From Parcubacteria group bacterium (GTDB lineage Bacteria > Patescibacteriota > Minisyncoccia > Moranbacterales > UBA2206), in contig JBAYWF010000002.1 in the NCBI GenBank assembly GCA_041674205.1, positions 46,940 through 110,939 of the forward strand: DNA of 64,000 nt, read 5' to 3'. A program made the translations under genes and the position numbers. The notes beneath the pieces are model-generated. The model worked only from the letters and a program-made list of their open reading frames with translations, did no database searches and was not told where the DNA came from. Shown one piece after another: positions 14,078 through 31,755 of this stretch; position 1 is the stretch's first letter; every line of letters begins with the position of its first letter.

Positions 14078-16597
14078 CTATTTTGATTTTAAAATAGCTT
14101 TTTTGAACGCGTCACCTTTCTCTTCGAAATTCTTCCAAACGCTATAACTCGGTGAAGCGGTCGAAAGCAAACATATTCCGCCAGGCCTGCTATTGGCAAA
14201 AGCGAATTCTACCGCTTCATCCATTTCTCCGGTATGTAAAATATGGTATTTCTTCTTGGACTTTTTACGCAAAGCCGCCGCGATTTTTTTCCCGCTATCA
14301 GGAAAAAAGGCGATATTTCTGACTTTCGATTTATCGATAGCGACGGCTAGCTTCAAAAAGTCATAACCCCGATCCAATCCACCCAAAAATATCGTATCCA
14401 CATCTTCCAATGAATCGATGGCCGCCATAGTCGACTCAGGCGTAGTCGAAATCGCATCGTCATAAAATCTGATTCCCTGAAATTCACCGACCAGCTCCAA
14501 GCGATGCGGCAAAGATCGGAATCCCTCAATGCCTTGTTTTATGGTATTTTTAGAAATTCCCAGCACATCAGCCACGGCGATTGCCGCTTTGATATTTTCT
14601 ACATTATGCTTGCCTAGCAAGGGGACCTTTATATCTCCTAGGCCTATCCCATTGAATGGAACTTTTTTTACATTCAAGCCGGCGAGTCTTTTTTCCAACT
14701 CACGATCTTTTTGATTAAATACGCAAACATCGGTCTGATTCTGAAATTTCACAATATTGCTCTTGGCCGCATAATATTTTTCCACACCACCATGGTAATT
14801 CATATGTTCAGGAAAAAGATTAAGCATCACCGCGATATTCGGCGAATACCGGATATCATCCAATTGATAGCTGGAGAGTTCGATGACGAAAATTTCTTCC
14901 GGATCGATCGGTTGCAATATGGCTTCCAGCATCGGACTGCCGATATTTCCCAATAGCCTGGCTTTTTTCCCCGCGGCCTGCAAAATAGAAAAAATGAGTG
15001 AAGCCGTAGTGCTCTTGCCTTTGCTGCCCGTGACTCCAATGGTCAGATTCGCCACTTGGGAAAAAAACAAGTTAGTCGCGGTCGTGTATGGCCGAGTGAT
15101 CAATTCCTTAGGCAAGCCCGGAGTTTTTATAACCAAATCAAATCCATCCTGTTTTTCCAAATAATCCGATCCGTCCTTTTCGTCCGCGATGGCAATTTTT
15201 ATTTTTGGAAAATATTTTCTTATATATTTCCCAGTCACCATCCCTTCCTTGCCATAACCTAAAATCAGTGCATTTTTAATACCCGATAACTTGAATTTAT
15301 CAGGCAATGCTGGCGCCGGGTTTGTCTCAAAGACCTTTTTAATAAGCTTGTCTGGATTTTTTATCCTATTGACGACATTTTGCATAATAAAGCTGTCTGT
15401 GAATTTGTCCTTAGCCGAAAACAAAGCCGCACGCGACTCATCAAAAGTACCGACACAATCGAAGGGTTTCATTTTTCCATAACCCAACACGTCCAAAAAT
15501 AAAGGCAATAGTTTTTCATCCGCATACATATCCTTATGGAAAATTTCCATCATTTCCCGCTTGCTCAAAAAAGCTGATAAGAGAATCCACATAAAAACGC
15601 ATTTAGGACATTCGCCGCACCACAATCCGTTCGGCCGATCCTTATGTATGCGGAAGCTGCGGTTGCAACTCGTAAATAAGGGGAAATATTTTTTATACCT
15701 TACGAACATCTCCACGATGCGGATCTCATAGAACGGGCGCAAAAGGGAGAAATATGTGACATCCGGACAGATATTTTTTCTAGTATATTCCTGGAAAAGT
15801 TTTTCAAATTCAGCCGACTTGCTCCATTGATGGTTGATTTCTTCACCTTTATAGGTGATGTTGCCGAAATTACTGCTATATTCGTTAGCTACGACCACCC
15901 GGGCATAATCATAAACGATCGCCGCGAAATAACCCAGAAAAGCGAAGACGGCCGAAATCGGGATATGTCCGTTATAGGCACCGGGAAAATCATCAAATAT
16001 CTTATCGTCCACACGCCTATTAATCACCAATGATCCGATTTTCAATTCCTCGGCTATCCGAACGGAAATCGGGGATTTTTTTTGCGTTTCAATCAAAAGA
16101 GCCGTGATATCCTCCCGCTGCTCCTTCAAAAGTTCCGCCGCCACGATCGAATCCTTGCCGCCGCCGATACCTACCAGTGAACGGTTTTTCCGGACCAGTT
16201 TGCGCGCGATCGGTTTCTTTTTCGCGTCATACGGGAATCTGACCAAATTATGCGGATCAATTCCGTTGCGATAAAAAAATTCACCCAAACCTTTCCGATA
16301 AACCGTATTCCAAAATTCCGCCTGATCCTTGGAAAGGACGGAGGAAATTTTTATTTTTTTCGGACAATATAATTTATAATAACTTATTCCCAATATGATA
16401 TGGATGCTGGATAATAAGTTTTTCAAAATTTCCGGATGGATGCCGGACACTGAAAATTTATCCGAAAAAGATATCGTCTCTGAAAAACGCAACGGCTCCC
16501 GATCGGCAAAAATTATCTCATAGTCAAAAACAGCCCTGGTTTTATCCGGCTCCAACTTATACGAAATAAAATTAAAGACTTTCGGATTAGGTTTCAT
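14078..16597 (-). CDS. fusion protein: N-terminal PP-loop ATP-pyrophosphatase domain (QueC-like, C-terminal CxxCxxC) + complete MurD-like Mur ligase
   Basis: SGGxDS-type PP-loop LVGIGGGKDS, CGECPKC; C-terminal half has MurD Rossmann N-domain and Mur ligase P-loop GVTGSKGKSTT. Confidence 0.7.
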   Translation of the reverse strand: MKPNPKVFNFISYKLEPDKTRAVFDYEIIFADREPLRFSETISFSDKFSVSGIHPEILKNLLSSIHIILGISYYKLYCPKKIKISSVLSKDQAEFWNTVYRKGLGEFFYRNGIDPHNLVRFPYDAKKKPIARKLVRKNRSLVGIGGGKDSIVAAELLKEQREDITALLIETQKKSPISVRIAEELKIGSLVINRRVDDKIFDDFPGAYNGHIPISAVFAFLGYFAAIVYDYARVVVANEYSSNFGNITYKGEEINHQWSKSAEFEKLFQEYTRKNICPDVTYFSLLRPFYEIRIVEMFVRYKKYFPLFTSCNRSFRIHKDRPNGLWCGECPKCVFMWILLSAFLSKREMMEIFHKDMYADEKLLPLFLDVLGYGKMKPFDCVGTFDESRAALFSAKDKFTDSFIMQNVVNRIKNPDKLIKKVFETNPAPALPDKFKLSGIKNALILGYGKEGMVTGKYIRKYFPKIKIAIADEKDGSDYLEKQDGFDLVIKTPGLPKELITRPYTTATNLFFSQVANLTIGVTGSKGKSTTASLIFSILQAAGKKARLLGNIGSPMLEAILQPIDPEEIFVIELSSYQLDDIRYSPNIAVMLNLFPEHMNYHGGVEKYYAAKSNIVKFQNQTDVCVFNQKDRELEKRLAGLNVKKVPFNGIGLGDIKVPLLGKHNVENIKAAIAVADVLGISKNTIKQGIEGFRSLPHRLELVGEFQGIRFYDDAISTTPESTMAAIDSLEDVDTIFLGGLDRGYDFLKLAVAIDKSKVRNIAFFPDSGKKIAAALRKKSKKKYHILHTGEMDEAVEFAFANSRPGGICLLSTASPSYSVWKNFEEKGDAFKKAILKSK

Positions 16598-19315: not shown

Positions 19316-19603
19316 TTAAACCTCGATATTCGTAATCTTCCAATTATCCCCCGCCGCTTTTTCGATTTCAAACCGCGTATTTTTCAGGATCGTATCTTTG
19401 GCGATACTTTCAATTCCGAACCGCACGTTTTCCAGATTCAACTCATCGAAATGCTCGTCGTGCGCGTGATCATGATGATGGTCGTGCGGCATGCTGGCGC
19501 CGCCGATTTCCAAGGAAACCGATTTGATATTCCCGATATTTTTTTCTCGGCTGATTCGCAAAACGGCATCGACGATTTCCTTGGCTAATAAAAAATCATG
19601 CAT
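19316..19603 (-). CDS. HypA-like Ni-metallochaperone with His-rich segment, lacking the Zn-finger CxxC pairs
   Basis: MHDFLLAKEIVD (MHE-type N-terminus), HDHHHDHAHDEH; no Cys. Confidence 0.5.
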   Translation of the reverse strand: MHDFLLAKEIVDAVLRISREKNIGNIKSVSLEIGGASMPHDHHHDHAHDEHFDELNLENVRFGIESIAKDTILKNTRFEIEKAAGDNWKITNIEV

Positions 19604-19668: not shown

Positions 19669-20043
19669 TTACGATTTCCACAATCCGTGGACATTGCAAT
19701 AAGCTCTCACTTCGATATGTTCAGCCTCCAGACAAAACTCCGCTTCCGGTTCCATACCCGGCTCCAAATGTTTCCGATAAACTCGATGCTCGGTTATGAC
19801 TTCGATCCATTCGATATAGTGTTCGCTCTCCATCGGATGCAGCACGCTGCCCACCCGCACGATCACGCCTTCACTCACCTTCTCCACGACCGGCCGGTGT
19901 TTTTCATATCTCTCTTCTTCGCTCTGTTCGGCTTGCAAAACCATCGGCTGGCCGCAACACACCAATTCACCCACTCCGTTATGCAAAACTTCGGTGATAT
20001 TGCCACAGATATCGCATTTATAGACTTGTCTTAATTCAGTCAT
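19669..20043 (-). CDS. dfx: desulfoferrodoxin (2Fe superoxide reductase)
   Basis: N-terminal desulforedoxin CDICGN...CCG; C-terminal SOR His/Cys ligands. Confidence 0.85.
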   Translation of the reverse strand: MTELRQVYKCDICGNITEVLHNGVGELVCCGQPMVLQAEQSEEERYEKHRPVVEKVSEGVIVRVGSVLHPMESEHYIEWIEVITEHRVYRKHLEPGMEPEAEFCLEAEHIEVRAYCNVHGLWKS

Positions 20044-20061: not shown

Positions 20062-21321
20062 TTAATGTACCGCGCAGGAAATGCACGGATCATAGGCCCG
20101 GATGAAGCCGCGTAACTTCTTTTGCTTGTCTTGATCCTTGAGATCGATTATCTCCTTGATGTAGTCCGCCACGTCATCTTCCAAATTAGCCAGGAACTGG
20201 GCGGTCGGAGTGATGATATTCACGTTTTTCACATAGCCTTTGCTGTCCACATCGACATGATAATAGAGCGTCCCGCGCGGAGCTTCGACCGCCGCCACGC
20301 CGACTCCCTCTTTGATTTCATATGGCCGGGTGACGACCCTCTCCAAGTCGGAGTTCAAAAGCTCTTTGATCAGCTTAGTCGATTCTTCGACGCAATGGAT
20401 GAGTTCAACCATCTGGCACAAGATATTATGGAATGGATTATAGTCCGGAAAAGTGAAATTCAAGCTTTCCAAATATTTGCCCGCTTGCGGATTGAGCTTA
20501 CTGCGGTTGATATTGATCCGGGCGATCGCTCCGACCATATAGCTTATCCCGTTATGCTCGACTTTTTTGATCACCTCGTTCTGCTTCTGCAATTCCTGGA
20601 AATCCTGTTCGAATTTTTCCACTGGGATATGCAGGCCGTACGAGGAAACTATGTCTCCGTCATAAACCGCATATCTCCCTTTCCCGCTCAAACATACATA
20701 CTCGGTTTCCCGTTGGAAATCGGGAATTTTTATTTTTTTGAAAAAATCACCCAGCGCGACAGCGTCTTGCAATGCCCGCTCGCTGTCCGCGACGATCTTC
20801 CGCAAAGCTTCCGCCTCCGGGGCTTTTTTGAAACCGCCCACCTCGTTGGTCAGCGGATGGATAACCCGTCCGCCGATGACCCGTACGATATCCATACCGA
20901 ACTCCCGCAGACGCACCGCGATTTTCGTTTCTTCGGGATAAGCGCTGACCAGCTGGATATCATTATCCATATCCAAAAAATCCGCCAATGACAGGAAAAA
21001 AAGATGGAGGGCATGCGAATGGATGATTTGCGCCAATTCCATCACCGTGCGCAGTTTTTTGGTTTCCGGCGTGACCTGGATGCCCATCGCGTTCTCCAAA
21101 GCCTTGATTGAAGTCAAGTTGTGCACCACCGGACAAATTCCACAAATGCGTTGGGCGATTATGGGCATATCCGTATAGTAGCGTCCGATCAGGACGCCCT
21201 CAATCAGACGGATGCCTTCCTGCACCTCCAGTTTGGCGCTTTTGACATCCCCATCCAACACACTGGCCATAAAACCGGCATGTCCTTCCATTTTAGCGAT
21301 ATGGTTTATTTTTATATCCAT
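20062..21321 (-). CDS. [NiFe]-hydrogenase large subunit (compact cytoplasmic group 3-like)
   Basis: N-terminal RICGICPVVH and C-terminal DPCISCAVH (ORF stops directly after His, no cleavable extension). Confidence 0.9.
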   Translation of the reverse strand: MDIKINHIAKMEGHAGFMASVLDGDVKSAKLEVQEGIRLIEGVLIGRYYTDMPIIAQRICGICPVVHNLTSIKALENAMGIQVTPETKKLRTVMELAQIIHSHALHLFFLSLADFLDMDNDIQLVSAYPEETKIAVRLREFGMDIVRVIGGRVIHPLTNEVGGFKKAPEAEALRKIVADSERALQDAVALGDFFKKIKIPDFQRETEYVCLSGKGRYAVYDGDIVSSYGLHIPVEKFEQDFQELQKQNEVIKKVEHNGISYMVGAIARININRSKLNPQAGKYLESLNFTFPDYNPFHNILCQMVELIHCVEESTKLIKELLNSDLERVVTRPYEIKEGVGVAAVEAPRGTLYYHVDVDSKGYVKNVNIITPTAQFLANLEDDVADYIKEIIDLKDQDKQKKLRGFIRAYDPCISCAVH

Positions 21322-21325
21322 AATT

Positions 21326-22534
21326 TTATATTTTTATGTTTTTTTCCCTCGCCTCTATATCATCCCGCAAGCCGAAAATCTCAGCGATGTTTTCAAATTC
21401 ATGGTCGGTCACCATATTTTTCAAAGCCGCGCGCATCGCTTTCACATTTCCAGTCGGACGGAGTCCGCGGCATCCCTGGCAAGTCATCCGGGAGGTCGGA
21501 CAGACCGCGCCGCACCCGCCCTGGATCATCGGTCCGAAGCACGGCTTCTTGTCGAGCAACAGACAACGGTTGCCAGCCGCTTTGCATTCGACGCAAACCG
21601 GCTGGTCGGGAATGACCGGAATCCGGCCGGCTAGCAATTCCGGGATATAGCGCAGAAACTCATCGCCGGAAATCGGACAGCCTGGGAAAACAAAATCGAC
21701 TTTTACGAAATTATCGATTTCCCTGATTTCCGGATTACTGATGCCTTGGATATATTTGTAGACATGTTTGATCGTATTGGCGCCTTCCTGGTAATTTTTA
21801 ATTTCCGGTATTCCGCCCATAGCCGCGCAATTGCCCAATGCTACCAATAACTTGCTTCTTTTACGCAAAGCTTTCAAAGTTTTTACATTTTCTTCCGTCA
21901 CCGGATTGCCTTCCACCAAGACCAAATCCAAATCGCCTCCGCCATCCTCTTCATCCTCGATCAGGCGGAAATCCACCATTTCTATTTTTCCCACAAAATC
22001 CAAAAATTTCTCGCCCAAATCCAGCAAAGCGAATTGGCACCCCTCGCAAGAAGTCAAGCTGGCGATAGCCACTTTCGGTTTTTTCAATTTGGCCTCCGGT
22101 TTGCTTGGCGCCGCTTTTGCCACTTTTGCGATTTTAACGGTTTTCTTAACCGCGCTTTTGTTTTTTTCATTCACGACAGCCACAGACGCATCAACTTTCT
22201 TTTTGGCTACCCGCTTGACTGTCGGCTTTCTCTTATCAGCCTTTGCCTTGCTCTTATTCGCAGGTTTGTTTGGCAATATCTTTTTTGCATCCTTTGTTTT
22301 TTTATCAGCTACTGTTTTTTTCTTGACCGTCAACTTAGCTGGCATTTTTTTCTTCACAACCCTCGCGCCTTTCTTGGCCACAGCCGATTTATTTTTCGCT
22401 ATCCCTACGGGCAGCTTTTTCACTTTCGATTTCTTGGCGTTTTTTTTAGCCGCAACTTTGCCTCTTAACCGAGAGGTCACACTGGATAACCTGCCTAAAA
22501 ATTTAGCGATTTTTGATTTTTTATTTACTGCCAT
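21326..22534 (-). CDS. [NiFe]-hydrogenase small subunit with ~150 aa Lys/Ala-rich N-terminal extension
   Basis: SCEGCQF proximal-cluster motif and C-terminal Cys clusters; N-terminal KKxAK repeats. Confidence 0.85.
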   Translation of the reverse strand: MAVNKKSKIAKFLGRLSSVTSRLRGKVAAKKNAKKSKVKKLPVGIAKNKSAVAKKGARVVKKKMPAKLTVKKKTVADKKTKDAKKILPNKPANKSKAKADKRKPTVKRVAKKKVDASVAVVNEKNKSAVKKTVKIAKVAKAAPSKPEAKLKKPKVAIASLTSCEGCQFALLDLGEKFLDFVGKIEMVDFRLIEDEEDGGGDLDLVLVEGNPVTEENVKTLKALRKRSKLLVALGNCAAMGGIPEIKNYQEGANTIKHVYKYIQGISNPEIREIDNFVKVDFVFPGCPISGDEFLRYIPELLAGRIPVIPDQPVCVECKAAGNRCLLLDKKPCFGPMIQGGCGAVCPTSRMTCQGCRGLRPTGNVKAMRAALKNMVTDHEFENIAEIFGLRDDIEAREKNIKI

Positions 22535-22612
22535 ATTATTTTTATTTTATGATTTATTTTACCACATTCCAGCTAAATTTAAAAATCGCCGATAACTTGC
22601 TATACTGGGCTT

Positions 22613-23776
22613 ATGCGGATATTCGAATATGAAAATAAGGACACTCGACAAATCTTGGCTCTCGGTCCCGAATCGAACGGCAATTTTTCGTTTTTCTATC
22701 AGAACAAGCTTTATTTTTCCGAAGATTTCGGCGATCTATTGATTGATAAAAATTTCCATAATTACAAAACGGGCCTTTCTAAGTTCCTCAGCGCAAACAA
22801 CTTCCGTCCGGACATCATCCTCACCGACTCGCATCCGCTCTACAAAACTACCACCCTAGGCCGAAACCTGGCTAAAAAATATCCCGCCAGACTTATCCAG
22901 ATCCAGCACCACCTCGCCCACATTTTTTCCGCGATCGGCGATAAAACATTACTGACTAGAAACTATCAGCTAGAAAAGGCTTTAGGCATAACTTTGGACG
23001 GTACCGGCTATGGATCGGATGATAAAATTTGGGGAGGGGAAATTTTTAGAATTTCAAAATCCAAATTTCAAATTTTAAATCAAATCCCACAACTAAAATT
23101 ACAAATCGAAAGGATCGGACACCTGGAAAACCAAGTGATGATCGGGGGTGATTTGGCTATCAAGGAGCCTGCACGTATGTTGATCGGCATCTTATCAAAA
23201 TTCCTACCCAAGGAAAGCATCTATCCGCATATAAGAAAATATTATTCCGCCCAGGAATTTGAAGTTTTATACAACCAATCGCAACAGAAATTCAACTGCA
23301 TCGAAACATCCAGCACCGGAAGGATTTTGGACGCGGTTTCCGTGCTGCTCGGTTTTTGCGGCAATCAAAGAAATTACAAACATGAGCCGATCGAGTTATT
23401 GGAAAAAAATTCAGCAAAACCCTATTTGGATTTAAAACCCGAAATTAGCAAAGATTCCGACGGAAACCATATCCTCAGCACCACTTATTTATTTAATTAC
23501 ATACTTAAATACTTACATAAAAACAAAGATATATCTGACGGGGATAGGAACCGCTTGGCTGCCACCGCCCAACTCTACATCGCCCAAGGACTATACCGAA
23601 TAATTTCGGATGCAGATTTCGAAATCAGGGACTTCTATCTAGCCGGCGGCATCGCCAACAATAAAATAATTTCCGGATATCTGGACTCCAAGGGCGCCTA
23701 CGCCAGCCGGACGATTCCCCGCGGCGACGCCGGGCTTTCGTTCGGGCAGATCGTTTTCTATTTATCCGGCCACTAA
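22613..23776 (+). CDS. HypF-like carbamoyltransferase, C-terminal Kae1/YgjD-like domain only
   Basis: QHHLAHIF (HypF HHxAH), LDGTGYGSD, LAGGIANN; no acylphosphatase, Zn-finger or YrdC domains. Confidence 0.6.
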   Translation: MRIFEYENKDTRQILALGPESNGNFSFFYQNKLYFSEDFGDLLIDKNFHNYKTGLSKFLSANNFRPDIILTDSHPLYKTTTLGRNLAKKYPARLIQIQHHLAHIFSAIGDKTLLTRNYQLEKALGITLDGTGYGSDDKIWGGEIFRISKSKFQILNQIPQLKLQIERIGHLENQVMIGGDLAIKEPARMLIGILSKFLPKESIYPHIRKYYSAQEFEVLYNQSQQKFNCIETSSTGRILDAVSVLLGFCGNQRNYKHEPIELLEKNSAKPYLDLKPEISKDSDGNHILSTTYLFNYILKYLHKNKDISDGDRNRLAATAQLYIAQGLYRIISDADFEIRDFYLAGGIANNKIISGYLDSKGAYASRTIPRGDAGLSFGQIVFYLSGH

Positions 23777-24525: not shown

Positions 24526-25506
24526 TCAACAAATGCGAGGAATCAATTTTCCCCGCGGAACATCGATTTTTTTGATGCCGCCGAGCGAAGTTTTGAGATA
24601 GACGCCTTTTCCACGCGCGACCGAACCGATGATTTTGGCGTTTTTGTCGTATTTCTGCAAGATTTTGACGGTTTTTTGGGCTTCTTTAGCGGAAACCGTC
24701 GCCACAAAACGGCCTTCGGAAGGGAAAGAAAATTTATCGATACCCAGGAGTTCGGACAAGGCCACCGTTTCTTTGGCGAAAGGAAGCTTGCCTTCTTCTA
24801 AAACTATTTTCACTTTGGATTTTTCGGCGATTTCATTAAGCACGGCCGCCACCCCGCCCCGGGTCGGATCTTTGCATGAAGTCAGATATTTGGCCACACT
24901 TTGGATTTCCAGGGTCAAGGGCCGGCAATCGCTTTTGATTTTGGTCTTGTAATTGAAACGGCTGGCCAAAAGCGCCACCGCGTGCTCGCCCAGATTGCCG
25001 GAAGCGATGACCGCGTCCCCCGCTTGCGCCCCGCCGTTTCCGATTATCTTTTTGGCCAACCCCACTCCGGAAGTGGTGATTTCCAATTTGTCGATCTTGC
25101 CCCTTTCCGTGACCTTGGTGTCCCCCGTCACGATCGGCACGCCGGTTTCCCGGGAGACCTTGCCGATCGACCGCATAATTTTTTGCAGATCTTCTTCCGG
25201 AAAACCTTCTTCGATCACCAGGCTCAAGCCGACGCCGATCGGACGCGCGCCCATCACCGACAAATCATTGATGGTGCCGCATAGCGCGATTTTGCCGATA
25301 TCGCCGCCCGGGAAAAAAAGCGGATCCACGATGAAAGCGTCCGTCGTAAAAACCAATCGTTCCTTGCCGATCCGGAACGAAGCTCCGTCATCCTGCGTGT
25401 TTTTCCACTGGCGGCTTGCTACGAAATTCCGACGGATTTGCGCGATCAGCCGATTGGATTTTTCTCCGCCTGCTCCAGCCTCCAATTCGATCATTTCTTT
25501 TTCCAT
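24526..25506 (-). CDS. hypE: hydrogenase maturation factor HypE
   Basis: AIR-synthase-like fold motifs and C-terminal PRIC. Confidence 0.9.
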   Translation of the reverse strand: MEKEMIELEAGAGGEKSNRLIAQIRRNFVASRQWKNTQDDGASFRIGKERLVFTTDAFIVDPLFFPGGDIGKIALCGTINDLSVMGARPIGVGLSLVIEEGFPEEDLQKIMRSIGKVSRETGVPIVTGDTKVTERGKIDKLEITTSGVGLAKKIIGNGGAQAGDAVIASGNLGEHAVALLASRFNYKTKIKSDCRPLTLEIQSVAKYLTSCKDPTRGGVAAVLNEIAEKSKVKIVLEEGKLPFAKETVALSELLGIDKFSFPSEGRFVATVSAKEAQKTVKILQKYDKNAKIIGSVARGKGVYLKTSLGGIKKIDVPRGKLIPRIC

Positions 25507-25874
25507 CGGTTAAATTTTAAGATTAAAATTGCGGCCAAAACGATGCCGATCAGATCAATTGCCACATCCCTTGGCGTACCCGTCCGGCCGAAAACGAAAG
25601 TCTGATGCCATTCGTCCGACGCCGCATATAATAAAGACAAGACCAGCGAAAACCATAAAGCTCTCTTCAGAGTGAAATTTTGTGAAAAAGCGCGGAAAAA
25701 CAAAAAAGCCAAGATGGAATATTCGATCACGTGGAAAGTTTTCCTTTCGATGAAATAAAACAAACTGAAAGGCCGGACATCGTGCCCTTCCATCGCCGAA
25801 AGCCCAAAAATGATCGCCATCCAAAACAAAACAGCCAGCCACGCGGATATTTTTTTAGTTACAAACTTTTCCAT
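25491..25874 (-). CDS. VanZ-like family membrane protein
   Basis: 4 TM helices, SDEWHQ...GR...DV motif. Confidence 0.55.
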   Translation of the reverse strand: MEKFVTKKISAWLAVLFWMAIIFGLSAMEGHDVRPFSLFYFIERKTFHVIEYSILAFLFFRAFSQNFTLKRALWFSLVLSLLYAASDEWHQTFVFGRTGTPRDVAIDLIGIVLAAILILKFNRWKKK

Positions 25875-25950: not shown

Positions 25951-27252
25951 TTAGAGAAGGCGTGTCGCTTTCTCCGCCAATCTCGAACGGTTTGCCCGCT
26001 TAAGCTTCAGATAACAGAATGCTTCGTCATCTTTGAAGCGGTCAATCAAATAGGCTAAACCACTTGAATTGGAATCGAGATATGGCGTGTCTATCTGTTC
26101 CAAATCGCCGCAAAACACGATTTTAGTGCCCTCGCCACAACGGGTAATAATCGTCTTCATCTCCCAAGGGCGCAAGTTCTGGGCTTCATCGATTATGATG
26201 AATGTGCGCTGAAGACTTCGTCCCCTGATATGGGCCACAGACTCAAGCTCAAGGATGCCCTGGGAAATAAGACTTTCCTTGGAAAAAAGGTTTTCTTTCT
26301 TGCTTTGCGCATTTTTCCTGCTAAACCCTTCCTCGATCCGTTGGTTGGAATTTTTGATAATTGCGTCCAGATTATCAAAGATCGGATTCATCCATTCGGA
26401 CAATTTTGCTTCCTTGTCTCCTGGGAAATATCCGATATCCGGACCTGATGCAATAGCCGGCCGTGCCACGACCACTTTGTCGTATAGTCTCCCACTCTTA
26501 AGCGCCTGATTCAGTCCGGACAATAGAGCTACAAAAGTCTTGCCTGTCCCGGCAACCCCTGACAAAGCTATCATTTCTATATCAGGACAGGACAGCGCGT
26601 CCAAGGCGCACTCCTGCTCCTCATCTCTTGGAGAAATCCCCCAAATATGCCTGCCTCTCCGTATGGACTTGCATGATTCCTTTTCCCAATGACGGAAAAT
26701 CTCCCCGCCTTTGACCCGGTACCGGACGGACAAGATACCATTCGGCTTCTCTTCATTTCCATCGAAGACTGAGCCGTACTTTTTGAAAAGCTCGGATTGA
26801 TCTTTGGTATAGTCATCCGTATTAAGCCCAAGACCAGACGCTTTGAGTCGGACATTAGTGTCCTTGGAGATGACAAACACTGTCTTTCCTTCCTCTGACA
26901 ATCCATACGCGAAAGACAAAATCCGGTTATCCGGCGTATCCCTTTTGAATTTGAGCGGATACTTACTATCCAATGATACGACAAGCATTCCGCCATTAGG
27001 CAGTTTTACTCCCTCCCTAATATCCCCTCCATTCAAAAATTCTGCTAGGCCGTTACTGGCCTTGCGGGCCGAAACGGCTACTGAGCCGTCAATATCATTA
27101 CTTCTTTTTTTGAGAGAATCCAGTTCCTCCAGGACTTCCTCGTAAATAACCACCGTATTGTCCCCGAATTCCCTGAACGCGTCCGGGTCATGGATTAGGA
27201 CGTTAGTGTCCAAAACGAAATACTTCGTTTTCTTTTTCTTTCTGGCTGCCAT
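25951..27252 (-). CDS. PhoH-like ATPase with N-terminal PIN domain (YlaK type); ORF extends to 27354
   Basis: PIN KYFVLDTNVLIHD; Walker A ALSGVAGTGKT. Confidence 0.8.
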   Translation of the reverse strand: MAARKKKKTKYFVLDTNVLIHDPDAFREFGDNTVVIYEEVLEELDSLKKRSNDIDGSVAVSARKASNGLAEFLNGGDIREGVKLPNGGMLVVSLDSKYPLKFKRDTPDNRILSFAYGLSEEGKTVFVISKDTNVRLKASGLGLNTDDYTKDQSELFKKYGSVFDGNEEKPNGILSVRYRVKGGEIFRHWEKESCKSIRRGRHIWGISPRDEEQECALDALSCPDIEMIALSGVAGTGKTFVALLSGLNQALKSGRLYDKVVVARPAIASGPDIGYFPGDKEAKLSEWMNPIFDNLDAIIKNSNQRIEEGFSRKNAQSKKENLFSKESLISQGILELESVAHIRGRSLQRTFIIIDEAQNLRPWEMKTIITRCGEGTKIVFCGDLEQIDTPYLDSNSSGLAYLIDRFKDDEAFCYLKLKRANRSRLAEKATRLL

Positions 27253-27357
27253 AAGCACCCCACTCGTTGAATTGATAAAAGAACAGCTTTCTGAGTGAAG
27301 CATAAAACAAGCCGGTTGCTTTTGCAAGCCACGAAAAACCCTAAAAAATGACAATTA

Positions 27358-28722: not shown

Positions 28723-30126
28723 TTACTTCCTAGATTGCCCTCCCCCGTTGACGCAGCCGCCCGGACAAACCATACATTCGATGAGGCCTGTTTTAATCCG
28801 GCCTTTGTCCAGATCGCGCAAGATGTTTTTTATTTGCGGCACGCCATCAGCCACGATATATTCCCTGCCAGTCATTTTGGCGATCATTTCCGCCGCCCCG
28901 CCCGCCCGCTTCATATCCTTGGCGCTTTCATTTTTCACGGCAAAATCCTTGCCGAAACCAACGCTTTTTATTTCCGCCAATTTAATATTTTTTTGCCTGA
29001 TCAACCGGCCCAATTCCCTGACAGTCAAAATATGATCAAGCTTTCCGCTTCTATCTTTTTTCTTCGCCACGCACGGGGAAATGGAAATAACCACGATATC
29101 TTGCGGATTTATTTTGTGCAGTTTCGCATAATCGCCTTTAATAGCCTCCGCCATCAATTCGTCCGGATTGGCGACATCCAAAACGCTGCCTTTGAACTGC
29201 GGATAATATTTATCCACTAATAAATTGAAAGATGGGCAATGGCTGAGCATCAGATTGCCCTTGCCGCTTGTTTTGATAGCCTGCGCCATTTTTTCCAGCG
29301 CCAATCCCATCCCGAACCCCAAATCAAAAACTTTTTCAAATCCCAGCGCTTCAAGCGCCCCGACCAATTTTCCTTCCGAATTTATCTCAGACTGCTCCAA
29401 AGCGATCGATTCCAAAACGGCCGGGTCAACCAAAGCGACAGCCATTTTTTTCAAATCATCCAATTCCGCTTGGATTCCGACTAGGTCATTTTTGTCAGTC
29501 AAAGCGCCAGTCGGACAATCTTTCACGCATTGCCCGCAAAAAATACAATCCAAAGGTTTTCCATACGCAGTGCCGACCACGGCATCTCCCGCCCGATGAT
29601 TGAAGGCCAGCTCCTTGGTCGGGCAGATATTGATGCATCTCCGGCATTCTACGCATAACTCAGTCGTCCTGGAAACGCAGGGATTGCCCTCGTCCACCAC
29701 TACTCGTGAGCGGTTGTCTTTCAACAAATCGAGATTTTCCCTGTCGGTCAATTCTTCTTTTCTGGGAATAAAATGGAAGTTTTCGATTTTCTGTTCCGTC
29801 GCCAGATTCTGCAATTCGCAGCGCTGGTTTTTCTTGCAAGCCGCGCATTTGCCCGCATGGTCCGCCCACAGCAATTCCAAATTGATCCGCCGGGCTTGGG
29901 AAATTTTTTCACTTTCCGTCACGATTTCCATCCCTTCGTAAACTTTCGTATTGCAAGAAGTGATGAGGCGTCCGCCGCATTCCACCACGCAGATCCGGCA
30001 CACGCCTTCGTGCGAATTTTTCGTACCGCATAATGTCGGGATCTTTATCCCGTTGCGCAAACAAACCTGGAAAATAGTCTCTCCCGGCTTTATTTCAAAA
30101 TCCTGACCGTTGATTTTTATTTTCAT
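28723..30126 (-). CDS. hydA: [FeFe]-hydrogenase catalytic subunit HydA (2Fe-2S + His-ligated 4Fe-4S + 2x4Fe-4S + compact H-domain), with Cys-to-His in L1 motif
   Basis: L1 LSHCP (canonical TSCCP), L2 SPCVAKKKD, L3 ECMVCPGGCVNGGGQ; N-terminal ferredoxin-like Cys clusters. Confidence 0.85.
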   Translation of the reverse strand: MKIKINGQDFEIKPGETIFQVCLRNGIKIPTLCGTKNSHEGVCRICVVECGGRLITSCNTKVYEGMEIVTESEKISQARRINLELLWADHAGKCAACKKNQRCELQNLATEQKIENFHFIPRKEELTDRENLDLLKDNRSRVVVDEGNPCVSRTTELCVECRRCINICPTKELAFNHRAGDAVVGTAYGKPLDCIFCGQCVKDCPTGALTDKNDLVGIQAELDDLKKMAVALVDPAVLESIALEQSEINSEGKLVGALEALGFEKVFDLGFGMGLALEKMAQAIKTSGKGNLMLSHCPSFNLLVDKYYPQFKGSVLDVANPDELMAEAIKGDYAKLHKINPQDIVVISISPCVAKKKDRSGKLDHILTVRELGRLIRQKNIKLAEIKSVGFGKDFAVKNESAKDMKRAGGAAEMIAKMTGREYIVADGVPQIKNILRDLDKGRIKTGLIECMVCPGGCVNGGGQSRK

Positions 30127-30170: not shown

Positions 30171-31415
30171 TTATTTGGAAATCTTATAGATTTCATCGCG
30201 GAAATTTTCCAGAGCGTCCGAAAAAGCCGTCGCGGCGAATTTACCCAACGGACAGAAGGTCGTATTATTGAGCGTCCACAAGATATCCTGGATGGCCGCC
30301 ACGTCCCGTTCGGACACTTCCCCGTCTTGCAGGCGCTTAGCGATTTCCCATAAACGAAAGGTTCCTTCGCGGCATGGCACGCATTTGCCGCAGGATTCCC
30401 GGCGGAAAAAACCCGTCCAGGACAGCAGCAATTCATGGATATTGGCTGTCTTGTCCACTACCAGCACCGCTCCGGATCCCAACGGGATTTTCGCTTCACA
30501 ATCATATTCCAATTTCAATTTCAAATCTTTTTCCAGCGCCAACCGTCCAGATGACCCGCCCACCTGCGCGAACCGGAACTCCTTGCCCAACTGGATACCG
30601 CCGGCATATTTCCCGATCAAATCACCTAATTTTATGCCTAGTGGCGCTTCAAAAACATCCGGATTTTTCACCGCTCCATTCACGATGAACAATTTGGTGC
30701 CGGGAGATTTCCGGGAACCGATTTTCGCATACGCCTTTCCGCCATTTTCGATTATCCACGGGATATTGGCTATGGTTTCCGCGTTATTGATCGCCGTCGG
30801 TTTACCAAACAACCCGCATTGCGTCGGATAGGGCGGCCGCGCTTTCGGCTCGCCGCGATTGCCCTCGATGGAATTCAAAAGCGCCGTTTCTTCCCCGCAG
30901 ATATATGCCCCGGCACCCGCGAAAATTTCCATTTCCAAACCATATTTTGAACCTAGGATGCTTTCGCCGATGAAATTTTTTTCCCGCGCTTGTTCCACCG
31001 CCCGCTCTAAAATTCCGATTTCTTTTCCATAGTTGCCATTGACGTATATGAAAGCCTTCCGCGCGCCCACGATCAATGATCCAATGATGATCCCCTCCAA
31101 AAGCATATGCGGATCATTATCAACGATCGACCGATCCTTGTAGGTTCCAGGCTCCGACTCATCCAGATTGCAAATGAAATATTTTTCCTGGTTTTTTTCC
31201 AAAGCCACGCATCCAAGCTTCCGTCCAGTCGGAAAACCGGCGCCGCCCCGCCCGCACAATCCGGAAACATTGATTTCCTCCAAAGCCGATTGCGGCGTCA
31301 TCTCCCGTATGAATTTCGACAAAGCGGCATATCCGCCCGTAGCGGCATAATCTTCTATCCTGCCCGGATTTATCTTCCCCCAATTTTTGGTTATTATTTT
31401 TATTTCCTTCTTCAT
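30171..31415 (-). CDS. NuoF-like NAD(P)H-binding flavoprotein subunit (HydB/HndC type); ORF extends to 31511
   Basis: GLCGRGGAGFPTGRK, CGKCVPCREG. Confidence 0.85.
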   Translation of the reverse strand: MKKEIKIITKNWGKINPGRIEDYAATGGYAALSKFIREMTPQSALEEINVSGLCGRGGAGFPTGRKLGCVALEKNQEKYFICNLDESEPGTYKDRSIVDNDPHMLLEGIIIGSLIVGARKAFIYVNGNYGKEIGILERAVEQAREKNFIGESILGSKYGLEMEIFAGAGAYICGEETALLNSIEGNRGEPKARPPYPTQCGLFGKPTAINNAETIANIPWIIENGGKAYAKIGSRKSPGTKLFIVNGAVKNPDVFEAPLGIKLGDLIGKYAGGIQLGKEFRFAQVGGSSGRLALEKDLKLKLEYDCEAKIPLGSGAVLVVDKTANIHELLLSWTGFFRRESCGKCVPCREGTFRLWEIAKRLQDGEVSERDVAAIQDILWTLNNTTFCPLGKFAATAFSDALENFRDEIYKISK

Positions 31416-31755
31416 CCTTACATTATATCGCAACAACCATATTTTGCATATCAAATCCCATATTTTTTTCCCACTGCTTATTGAGAAAACCGCCCTTAGT
31501 CTCCGCGCCACGATTGATCAATTCGTCTTTTACTCATATTTTCCAACCATCATTCTTGCCTTGATTGAGCTCCAAACAATAGTAACCTTTACAAAAAACA
31601 ATTTTTAGTGTATAATAGATAATTGTGCCTGATTATTATCCGACCAACACCAGATTTTGTTCGATAATTGACTTTTGAATCAAAAACGCTATCATTTATA
31701 AAGAACGGTTTTGCACATTCCAACACATTCAAACAAAACATTTCAGGGGGTCAGG

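Follow-up and report, generated by a model that had tools for sequence, protein, structure and literature searches.

A lysine-rich, polycationic N-terminal tail on a group-3b-like [NiFe]-hydrogenase small subunit from a Moranbacterales genome

Few metalloprotein subunits have been studied as thoroughly as the small subunits of hydrogenases. The gene considered here encodes a small subunit with a long, strongly basic N-terminal tail; it lies within a stretch of 64,000 nucleotides (the window) from a Parcubacteria group bacterium of the Moranbacterales (GenBank assembly GCA_041674205.1, contig JBAYWF010000002.1, positions 46,940 to 110,939 of the forward strand), and coordinates are those of the window unless a relative is named. 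The open reading frame (ORF) of 402 codons, with an ATG start, appears in the ORF list at 21326..22534 on the minus strand, where the original prediction had located it. The encoded protein divides into the tail and a small-subunit core, and the gene for the large subunit follows:

21326..22534, minus strand: complete coding sequence, 402 amino acids (aa) plus stop, for the small (delta) subunit of a group-3b-like [NiFe]-hydrogenase, tail included, based on the ORF list, Pfam Oxidored_q6, and an identical protein in two assemblies.
22070..22534, minus strand: polycationic N-terminal tail, aa 1-155, based on composition, a stop-free frame, frame-preserving insertions and deletions (indels), no tandem repeat in the DNA, and no family match.
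21326..22069, minus strand: core of the small subunit (aa 156-402), in which 12 Cys residues are conserved, based on PDB 9e15_A, NCBIfam ShyD/HydD, the invariant Cys residues, and a predicted local distance difference test (pLDDT) score above 90.
20062..21321, minus strand: [NiFe]-hydrogenase large (alpha) subunit, 419 aa, based on Pfam NiFeSe_Hases; it starts 4 nt past the small-subunit stop.

Residues 1-155 consist of 32.3% Lys, 15.5% Ala, 12.9% Val, 6.5% Ser, and 5.2% Pro, with two Glu and four Asp as the only acidic residues, giving a net charge of +50; the 247-aa core has a net charge of -6. The tail of about 150 Lys/Ala-rich residues that the original prediction had described is thus present. 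Measured against what the base composition of the tail itself predicts, Lys is in 2.5-fold excess (32% vs. 13%), Glu is depleted 6-fold (1.3% vs. 7.8%), and Ala and Val are each about 3-fold over-represented, the excess for Ala, Val, and Pro ranging from 2- to 3-fold. Because Ala and Val (and Pro) exceed the expectation from base composition, A-richness alone is insufficient to account for the tail. Tandem Repeats Finder reports only two trivial arrays of 19-20 nt in the DNA, hence no tandem repeat, and a tandem-repeat origin is rejected.

With the tail alone as query, neither Pfam nor the PDB gives a match at E<=10, and a set of 5.8 billion proteins gives none at E<=0.001. The description of the tail as histone H1- or Hc1-like, which had also been proposed, holds for its composition (Lys/Ala-rich and basic) but not for homology; as judged by these searches, the likeness is a resemblance in composition and not family membership. 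Nor is the tail an instance of a proteome-wide trait: none of the other non-ribosomal proteins encoded in the window (about 60 genes) has a comparable basic tract, and only a mild enrichment of Lys is general, with residues 2-11 containing about twice as much Lys across window genes (18% vs. 9.5%). The N-terminus of the small subunit is a permissive, surface-exposed site, the end at which periplasmic hydrogenases bear a twin-arginine translocation (Tat) signal. Neither an RR dipeptide nor a hydrophobic stretch occurs in aa 1-155, and since a twin-arginine motif, a hydrophobic h-region, and an AxA cleavage site are all lacking, the tail is not an export signal.

A prediction by AlphaFold2, run with a 59-sequence alignment, divides the tail into two parts:

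22424..22528, minus strand: predicted N-terminal helix, aa 3-37 (AlphaFold2, pLDDT about 68-84).
22076..22423, minus strand: polylysine-rich linker (aa 38-153), predicted to be disordered (AlphaFold2); it ends in KKPK, and KKPK or KKPR marks the junction in nearly all homologues.

The predicted helix is weakly amphipathic, with a hydrophobic stripe formed by I9, F12, L13, L16, V19, and L22 and a hydrophobic moment of up to 0.51 in the window protein and 0.35 in relatives. Over aa 40-140 the block-mean pLDDT is 39-56, and for the core it is mostly above 90.

Judged from sequence features, the tail is genuinely coding and almost certainly translated from the first ATG codon (ATG1). The 402-aa protein is identical in two independently assembled contigs (ENA ERZ27247358 and Logan SRR6484325). 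The 465-nt tail region is free of in-frame stops, a property shared by none of 20,000 composition-preserving shuffles, and the two other frames contain 13 and 14 stops. In a DNA alignment with the tail of the closest orthologue (P0001), the indels are 21, 6, 69, and 18 nt long, each a multiple of 3. An Rfam scan of the region gives one chance sub-threshold match (21 vs. 60 bits), and no family in that scan explains the region. An ORF on the opposite strand (21831-22595, plus strand) is rejected as a Phe/Leu-rich shadow of the Lys codons that also overlaps the conserved core.

Two features bear on where translation begins:

22556..22583, minus strand: promoter-like site, TTTAAA and TG-TAAAAT separated by a 16-nt spacer, about 21 nt upstream of ATG1 (consensus scan).
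22085..22097, minus strand: internal GGAGG-N5-TTG (codon 150), a candidate alternative start at the domain boundary, judged unlikely to be in use.

The promoter-like site lies within a 78-bp divergent intergenic region shared with a hypF-like gene, and the leader of ATG1 is A/T-rich, typical of the genome, and practically the same in P0001 and in another relative, L010. The original prediction had argued for translation of the tail from the lack of an internal ATG past codon 64; ATG indeed occurs in frame at codons 1 and 64 alone, but GTG or TTG codons at 118, 121, 138, 150, and 155 had been overlooked. TTG150 and GTG155 are rejected as the main start, and internal initiation is unlikely because the genome is nearly devoid of Shine-Dalgarno (SD) sequences (an SD-like motif accompanies just 4 of the 58 gene starts sampled in the window) and dominated by ATG starts (56 of the 58), because GGAGG followed by a start codon is common (41 occurrences in the window), because P0001 has no start-type codon after codon 75 and must therefore make at least 49 tail residues, and because the sole minus-strand promoter-like site is upstream of ATG1, the consensus scan having found none inside the tail-coding region.

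The core is that of a normal small subunit, as had been predicted. Its sole Pfam domain is PF01058 (Oxidored_q6, the NuoB/hydrogenase small-subunit fold), which matches aa 163-297 with 81 bits against a cut-off of 27. The best PDB match is the delta subunit of Pyrococcus furiosus sulfhydrogenase I (9e15_A, E 5.9e-35, aa 152-358, with the match beginning at residue 12 of the chain), followed by weaker matches to MvhG/VhuG (6e-27), HoxY-type (1e-18), and FrhG (1e-13) proteins; NCBIfam models rank in the order ShyD > HydD > VhuG > FrhG. The equivalog scores for HydD and ShyD are not reached (146 and 141 bits vs. cut-offs of 460 and 500), and the protein is, on sequence grounds, a divergent group-3b-like delta subunit rather than an equivalog of the archaeal enzymes. 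Twelve Cys residues are invariant or nearly so among 59 sequences (C163, C166, C236, C286, C314, C317, C324, C332, C341, C345, C352, and C355); these would suffice to ligate three [4Fe-4S] clusters, to which they may tentatively be assigned.

The adjoining large subunit likewise has its best PDB match in sulfhydrogenase I (alpha subunit, 9e1j_B, E 3.5e-66) and its best NCBIfam matches in HydA/ShyA, far below the equivalog cut-offs. The four-gene beta-gamma-delta-alpha operon is not present as such; only delta and alpha are adjacent, and the scanned ORFs of the window include no gene for a HydB/HydG-type beta/gamma diaphorase (no Fer4_22 or NAD_binding_1/DHODB_Fe-S_bind gene). The large subunit terminates at the His of its C-terminal DPCISCAVH motif and has no C-terminal extension for a maturation endopeptidase; no gene for a HycI-type protease is seen at the locus.

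The distribution of the tail was followed in 80 species-representative genomes, drawn from 238 genome hits, and in the top 120 homologous proteins, which have core identities of about 70-91%. The close homologues are all from Candidatus Moranbacteria/Moraniibacteriota and other Patescibacteria. Among the top 120 homologues, between 4 aa (MKPK) and 123 aa precede the core; this stretch is rich in Lys in nearly every case, with a conserved KKPK/KKPR junction at its end and often M-E-N-K-K at the N-terminus. In the 80 species tail length forms a continuum with the same KKPK junction, ranging from 6 to 127 aa with a median of 23; the window tail, at 155 aa, is the longest seen. The tail has a net positive charge in 76 of the 80 species, and of the 28 tails that are 30 aa or longer, 23 reach +0.18 charges per residue or more; the other five comprise three ORF calls that probably extend too far and the mixed-charge tails of L044 and L086.

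Long tails are found in the closest relatives of the window protein, P0001 (123 aa) and L010 (127 aa), whose cores are both 96% identical to that of the window. The tails of these two begin MAENKKSKISNFLSKLSAV, and that of the window begins MAVNKKSKIAKFLGRLSSV; in the three long-tail relatives, clear conservation of tail sequence is confined to the first 20 or so residues (MAxNKKSKIxxFLxxLSxV). Most other tails lack the helix segment, even long ones such as those of P0080, L080, and P0121. Among relatives with about 90% or higher core identity, the tail is 9-17 aa in L011/L012, 48 aa in P0002, and 123-127 aa in P0001/L010. The original prediction took variability among close relatives as the mark of an annotation artefact; the tail does vary, from 9 to 155 aa, yet it is a coding feature nonetheless because the indels keep the frame and both the N-terminus and the leader are conserved.

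Outside this clade, a search of 1.84 billion cluster representatives shows that most 3b-like small subunits have no more than about 15 residues before the first strand. Two distant proteins have Lys-rich tails of their own: P0163 (38% identity; L091, 1717-2697), with a 75-aa tail that is a near-perfect (AKPK)n array, and P0211 (33% identity; L090, 5001-5945), with a tail of 74 aa. Both are encoded within canonical beta-gamma-delta-alpha operons.

Comparison with P0001 separates the behaviour of the tail from that of the core. The aligned tails have 29 identical codons, 34 synonymous differences, and 61 non-synonymous differences, and the cores have 152, 83, and 9, respectively; amino-acid identity is 48% in the tail and 96% in the core. 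Of 47 aligned K/R positions in the tail, 36 are basic in both proteins, 10 are paired with a neutral residue, and one with an acidic residue. As basic positions are kept and Glu is under-represented, the change from Lys (AAA) to Glu (GAA), a single transition, appears to be selected against. Positive charge is kept by selection, and the sequence and length of the tail are not.

The tail most plausibly arose in place, by repeated low-complexity expansion of a short Lys-rich N-terminus (M-x-x-N-K-K ... K-K-P-K) that occurs throughout the clade; growth in place is suggested by the continuous spread of tail lengths, over which the KKPK junction stays fixed, and by the lack of any separate gene upstream. 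Fusion with an upstream histone-like gene is rejected on similar grounds: in short-tailed relatives only a short intergenic region, with no separate ORF, lies between the gene and the divergent hypF-like gene, and intermediate lengths exist. A short Lys-rich N-terminus fits the genome-wide enrichment of Lys just past the start codon in a genome without SD sequences.

The wider locus is read on the minus strand, with the hypF-like gene divergent. The genes are, in order, those for a NuoF-like protein, an [FeFe]-hydrogenase-like protein, HypC, HypD, a PIN-PhoH fusion, a VanZ-like protein, HypE, and an unknown 171-aa protein, followed by the divergent gene for the C-terminal half of HypF and then by those for the small subunit, large subunit, desulfoferrodoxin, a HypA-like protein, and glyceraldehyde-3-phosphate dehydrogenase. 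The first two are:

30171-31511, minus strand: NuoF-like flavoprotein gene, in the region directly upstream of hypC-hypD.
28723-30126, minus strand: [FeFe]-hydrogenase-like gene; the best NCBIfam match is to group A6, far below the cut-off.

The two genes could encode a further hydrogenase or else supply the diaphorase partner that is missing from the alpha-delta [NiFe] enzyme.

The genes for the PIN-PhoH fusion (25951-27354, minus strand) and the VanZ-like protein (25491-25874, minus strand) separate hypD from hypE; in two relatives (L007 and L008), hypE follows hypD directly or closely. The hypF-like gene (22613-23776, plus strand) encodes the Kae1-like C-terminal half alone (387 aa; Pfam HypF_C and HypF_C_2), with no match to the acylphosphatase, zinc-finger, or YrdC domains, and the proteins of relatives are equally truncated (402-406 aa). 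The HypA-like protein (19316-19603, minus strand; 95 aa) has no cysteine, hence lacks the usual zinc site; it contains a His-rich stretch, PHDHHHDHAHDEH, and scores 27.9 bits against the Pfam cut-off of 28.9 for HypA. Farther along, at 14078-16597 on the minus strand, is the gene for an 839-aa protein of the Mur-ligase family, in which about 520 N-terminal residues have no Pfam match and the C-terminus is short and Lys-rich.

The gene for desulfoferrodoxin (superoxide reductase; 19669-20043, minus strand) is on the same strand as the large-subunit gene, 18 bp beyond it, and 33 of the 80 relatives have it within the flank that was retrieved. This hints that H2 oxidation may be linked to the detoxification of oxygen radicals. 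Between the genes for the small and large subunits, 29 of the 80 relatives have a gene for a matrixin-type metalloprotease (Peptidase_M10) and a small ORF (for the M10 gene, e.g., L007, 7238-8182; L008, 7011-7889; L009, 1046-1984); the window has no M10 gene. Tail length shows no relation to the presence of the M10 gene (medians of 24 vs. 23 aa) and at most a weak relation to that of the desulfoferrodoxin gene (medians of 29 vs. 18 aa, many loci being truncated), so that nothing convincing links it to neighbouring genes.

A tentative reading, held with somewhat less than even confidence, is that the tail is a low-complexity expansion selected for its charge and acting as an electrostatic tether to polyanions. 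About 115 flexible residues, in a tail with some +50 charges, would bind polyanions non-specifically, recognizing no particular sequence, and would keep the alpha-delta enzyme attached to polyanions of the cell. Nucleic acid, in the nucleoid or as ribosomal RNA, would be the most abundant candidate, with polyphosphate and anionic lipid as alternatives; such tethering may restrict the position of the enzyme in a very small cell. Binding to nucleic acid or to another polyanion, which the original prediction had already raised, is a reasonable hypothesis.

Several points weigh against tethering. Tails of 9 to 155 aa occur among relatives with about 90% or higher core identity; a long tail must therefore be dispensable for the enzyme, and any function it has must be tunable or marginal. 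The 93-aa tail of L086 is of mixed charge (K+R 23%, D+E 24%), and the 30-aa tail of L044 is mixed-charge or acidic. The polyanionic partner is itself postulated, and a hydrogenase has no obvious need to contact nucleic acid. The 115 or so tail residues are probably disordered, low pLDDT being merely a proxy for disorder. Finally, the avoidance of acidic residues could stem from selection against another property, e.g., folding back onto the acidic loop EDEEDGGGD of the core.

It is possible, though on the unlikely side, that the tail is functionless, a piece of translated "junk" that grows and shrinks nearly neutrally, through slippage or indels, because the N-terminus is permissive and exposed to solvent; its charge would then follow from the harm done by acidic or hydrophobic variants or from a mutational preference for A-rich codons near the start. 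The extreme plasticity in length over short distances (9-17, 48, 123-127, and 155 aa) is what such a process would produce, but the DNA contains no repeat to drive slippage. The difference in identity between tail and core (48% vs. 96%) points in the same direction, yet the long-tail relatives share a conserved N-terminal segment of 20 residues, and Ala, Val, and Pro are 2- to 3-fold above the expectation from base composition. A median tail of only 23 aa and the genome-wide enrichment of Lys past the start codon also favour this account; however, no other enzyme encoded in the window has one, and Lys-rich tails have appeared independently in two distant 3b lineages (P0163 and P0211). Lastly, non-basic tails do exist (L086 and L044), but between the window protein and P0001 36 of the 47 basic positions are kept and only one has become acidic, although Glu is a single transition away from Lys.

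Capture of redox partners is an improbable alternative. The polycation would recruit acidic partners to an alpha-delta hydrogenase that has no beta/gamma diaphorase of its own, the candidates being ferredoxin, pyruvate:ferredoxin oxidoreductase (PFOR), the NuoF-like/[FeFe]-hydrogenase-like pair, and the acidic desulfoferrodoxin encoded just downstream. Beta/gamma genes are indeed not found in the operon or among the scanned ORFs of the window, but the tailed P0163 and P0211 proteins belong to complete beta-gamma-delta-alpha operons, and relatives with tails of just 6 aa share the alpha-delta-only locus. In keeping with partner capture, the neighbouring proteins are acidic (net charge -11 for desulfoferrodoxin and -9 for the large subunit); tail length, however, is at most weakly related to the presence of the desulfoferrodoxin gene and unrelated to that of the M10 gene. 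Hopkins et al. are said to have found in 2011 that the alpha-delta subcomplex of the P. furiosus enzyme can take electrons directly from PFOR, which would count in favour of such capture.

The tail might instead be a peripheral membrane anchor, in which the predicted helix and the polybasic stretch would bind anionic phospholipids and so position the enzyme on the inner side of the membrane, but this is decidedly improbable. A polybasic chain behind a predicted helix (aa 3-37) that bears a hydrophobic stripe would suit an anchor, and no part of the tail is better conserved in the three long-tail relatives than the helix segment; this segment is missing, though, from most other tails, the long ones of P0080, L080, and P0121 included. 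The hydrophobic moment (0.51 at most; 0.35 in relatives) and the mean hydrophobicity are both under the usual threshold for "surface-seeking" helices, and the locus encodes no membrane subunit.

Almost no weight is given to the tail being absent from the mature protein, as an annotation artefact or a transient leader, whether through a start at TTG150 or GTG155 or through cleavage of a propeptide: GGAGG does lie 5 nt before TTG150, GTG155 is at the domain boundary, many relatives' proteins begin at that boundary (M-K-P-K...), and 29 of the 80 relatives encode the M10 metalloprotease between the subunit genes, but SD-like motifs are rare (4 of 58 genes) and ATG starts the rule (56 of 58), GGAGG with a start codon arises 41 times in the window by chance, P0001 must make at least 49 tail residues, 465 nt of stop-free sequence conserving frame and charge would not be maintained if untranslated, and the M10 gene is missing from the window and unrelated to tail length in relatives.

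If the tail does tether the enzyme to nucleic acid, polyphosphate, or the membrane, even "soluble" fermentative hydrogenases would be spatially organized, and the tail would offer a handle on the physiology of uncultured Moranbacteria that have an alpha-delta-only enzyme. A wider proposition, which is doubtful, is that polycationic disordered tails are a localization or tethering device acquired independently in at least three group-3b lineages (Moranbacteria, the (AKPK)n-tailed P0163, and P0211), fixing the enzyme to the nucleoid, ribosomes, another polyanionic surface, or the membrane, and that their length is rapidly tuned in the ultra-small cells of the candidate phyla radiation (CPR) to place H2 metabolism. 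Spatial organization of this kind would be a layer not recognized before in a soluble hydrogenase. Should near-neutral expansion be the better account, the gene would be a clean natural example of fast growth and shrinkage of a low-complexity tail under pure charge constraint. In practical terms, the tail should be left in place, and not cut off as an artefact, when such enzymes are annotated automatically or their structures modelled.

The enzyme is of a known kind, and its tail is, to judge from the searchable literature and the solved structures, an undescribed feature. Literature searches for Lys-rich tails on hydrogenases or in CPR bacteria gave nothing relevant; the papers that could be searched describe neither a disordered tail of about 155 residues and +50 charges on a cytoplasmic group-3b enzyme nor any Lys-rich [NiFe] small subunit, which agrees with the original prediction that such tails are not a described feature. 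The nearest characterized relatives are the delta subunits of sulfhydrogenases I and II from Pyrococcus and Thermococcus (HydD and ShyD; PDB 9e15, 9nez, and 9e1j), which have the same Cys pattern and an alignable core. Unlike the window protein, the solved delta chains are tail-less, starting 3-12 residues before the first strand, and the window locus differs further in that beta and gamma genes were not found and the alpha subunit has no C-terminal extension. Closer in lineage are the group 3b [NiFe]-hydrogenases of Moranbacteria and Berkelbacteria known from CPR genomes, for which gene arrangement and AlphaFold models of the four-subunit complex have been presented (PMC10811913); these are of the same phylum-level lineage and enzyme class, and the passages retrieved from that paper do not include a Lys-rich N-terminal tail on the small subunit.

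Tat signals of group 1 and 2 [NiFe] small subunits resemble the tail in topological position, in length, and in having a positively charged region, but the tail has no Tat motif. To our knowledge, these export signals are the only long N-terminal extensions on hydrogenase small subunits.

In composition the tail is closer to a set of basic, low-complexity bacterial proteins. H1-type tails are richer in Ala and Pro and poorer in Val than the hydrogenase tail. The chlamydial proteins Hc1 and Hc2 and the PAKKA tail of PhaM are Lys/Ala-rich, basic, and of low complexity, and tethering to poly(3-hydroxybutyrate) granules occurs via polyanion binding. AlgP, a histone H1-like K/A/P-rich bacterial protein, spaces polyphosphate granules (PMC9239181). 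AlgP, Hc1/Hc2, and PhaM are mostly stand-alone proteins or adaptors with periodic KPAA or PAKKA motifs, whereas the hydrogenase tail is aperiodic at the DNA level and has no detectable homology to them; they share with it a Lys/Ala-rich, strongly basic composition, and by analogy their tethering or spacing via polyanions may be the type of mechanism at work here.

An enzyme offers the last comparison. In actinobacterial topoisomerase I, a C-terminal domain of lysine repeats is reported to give DNA binding and processivity through its charge (PMC7398561). That extension is C-terminal and DNA is the substrate of the enzyme; the hydrogenase tail is N-terminal, on an enzyme with no nucleic-acid substrate, and the two have no detected homology. 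Topoisomerase I is nonetheless, by the same account, likewise an enzyme with a long, low-complexity, lysine-rich terminal extension whose length depends on lineage.

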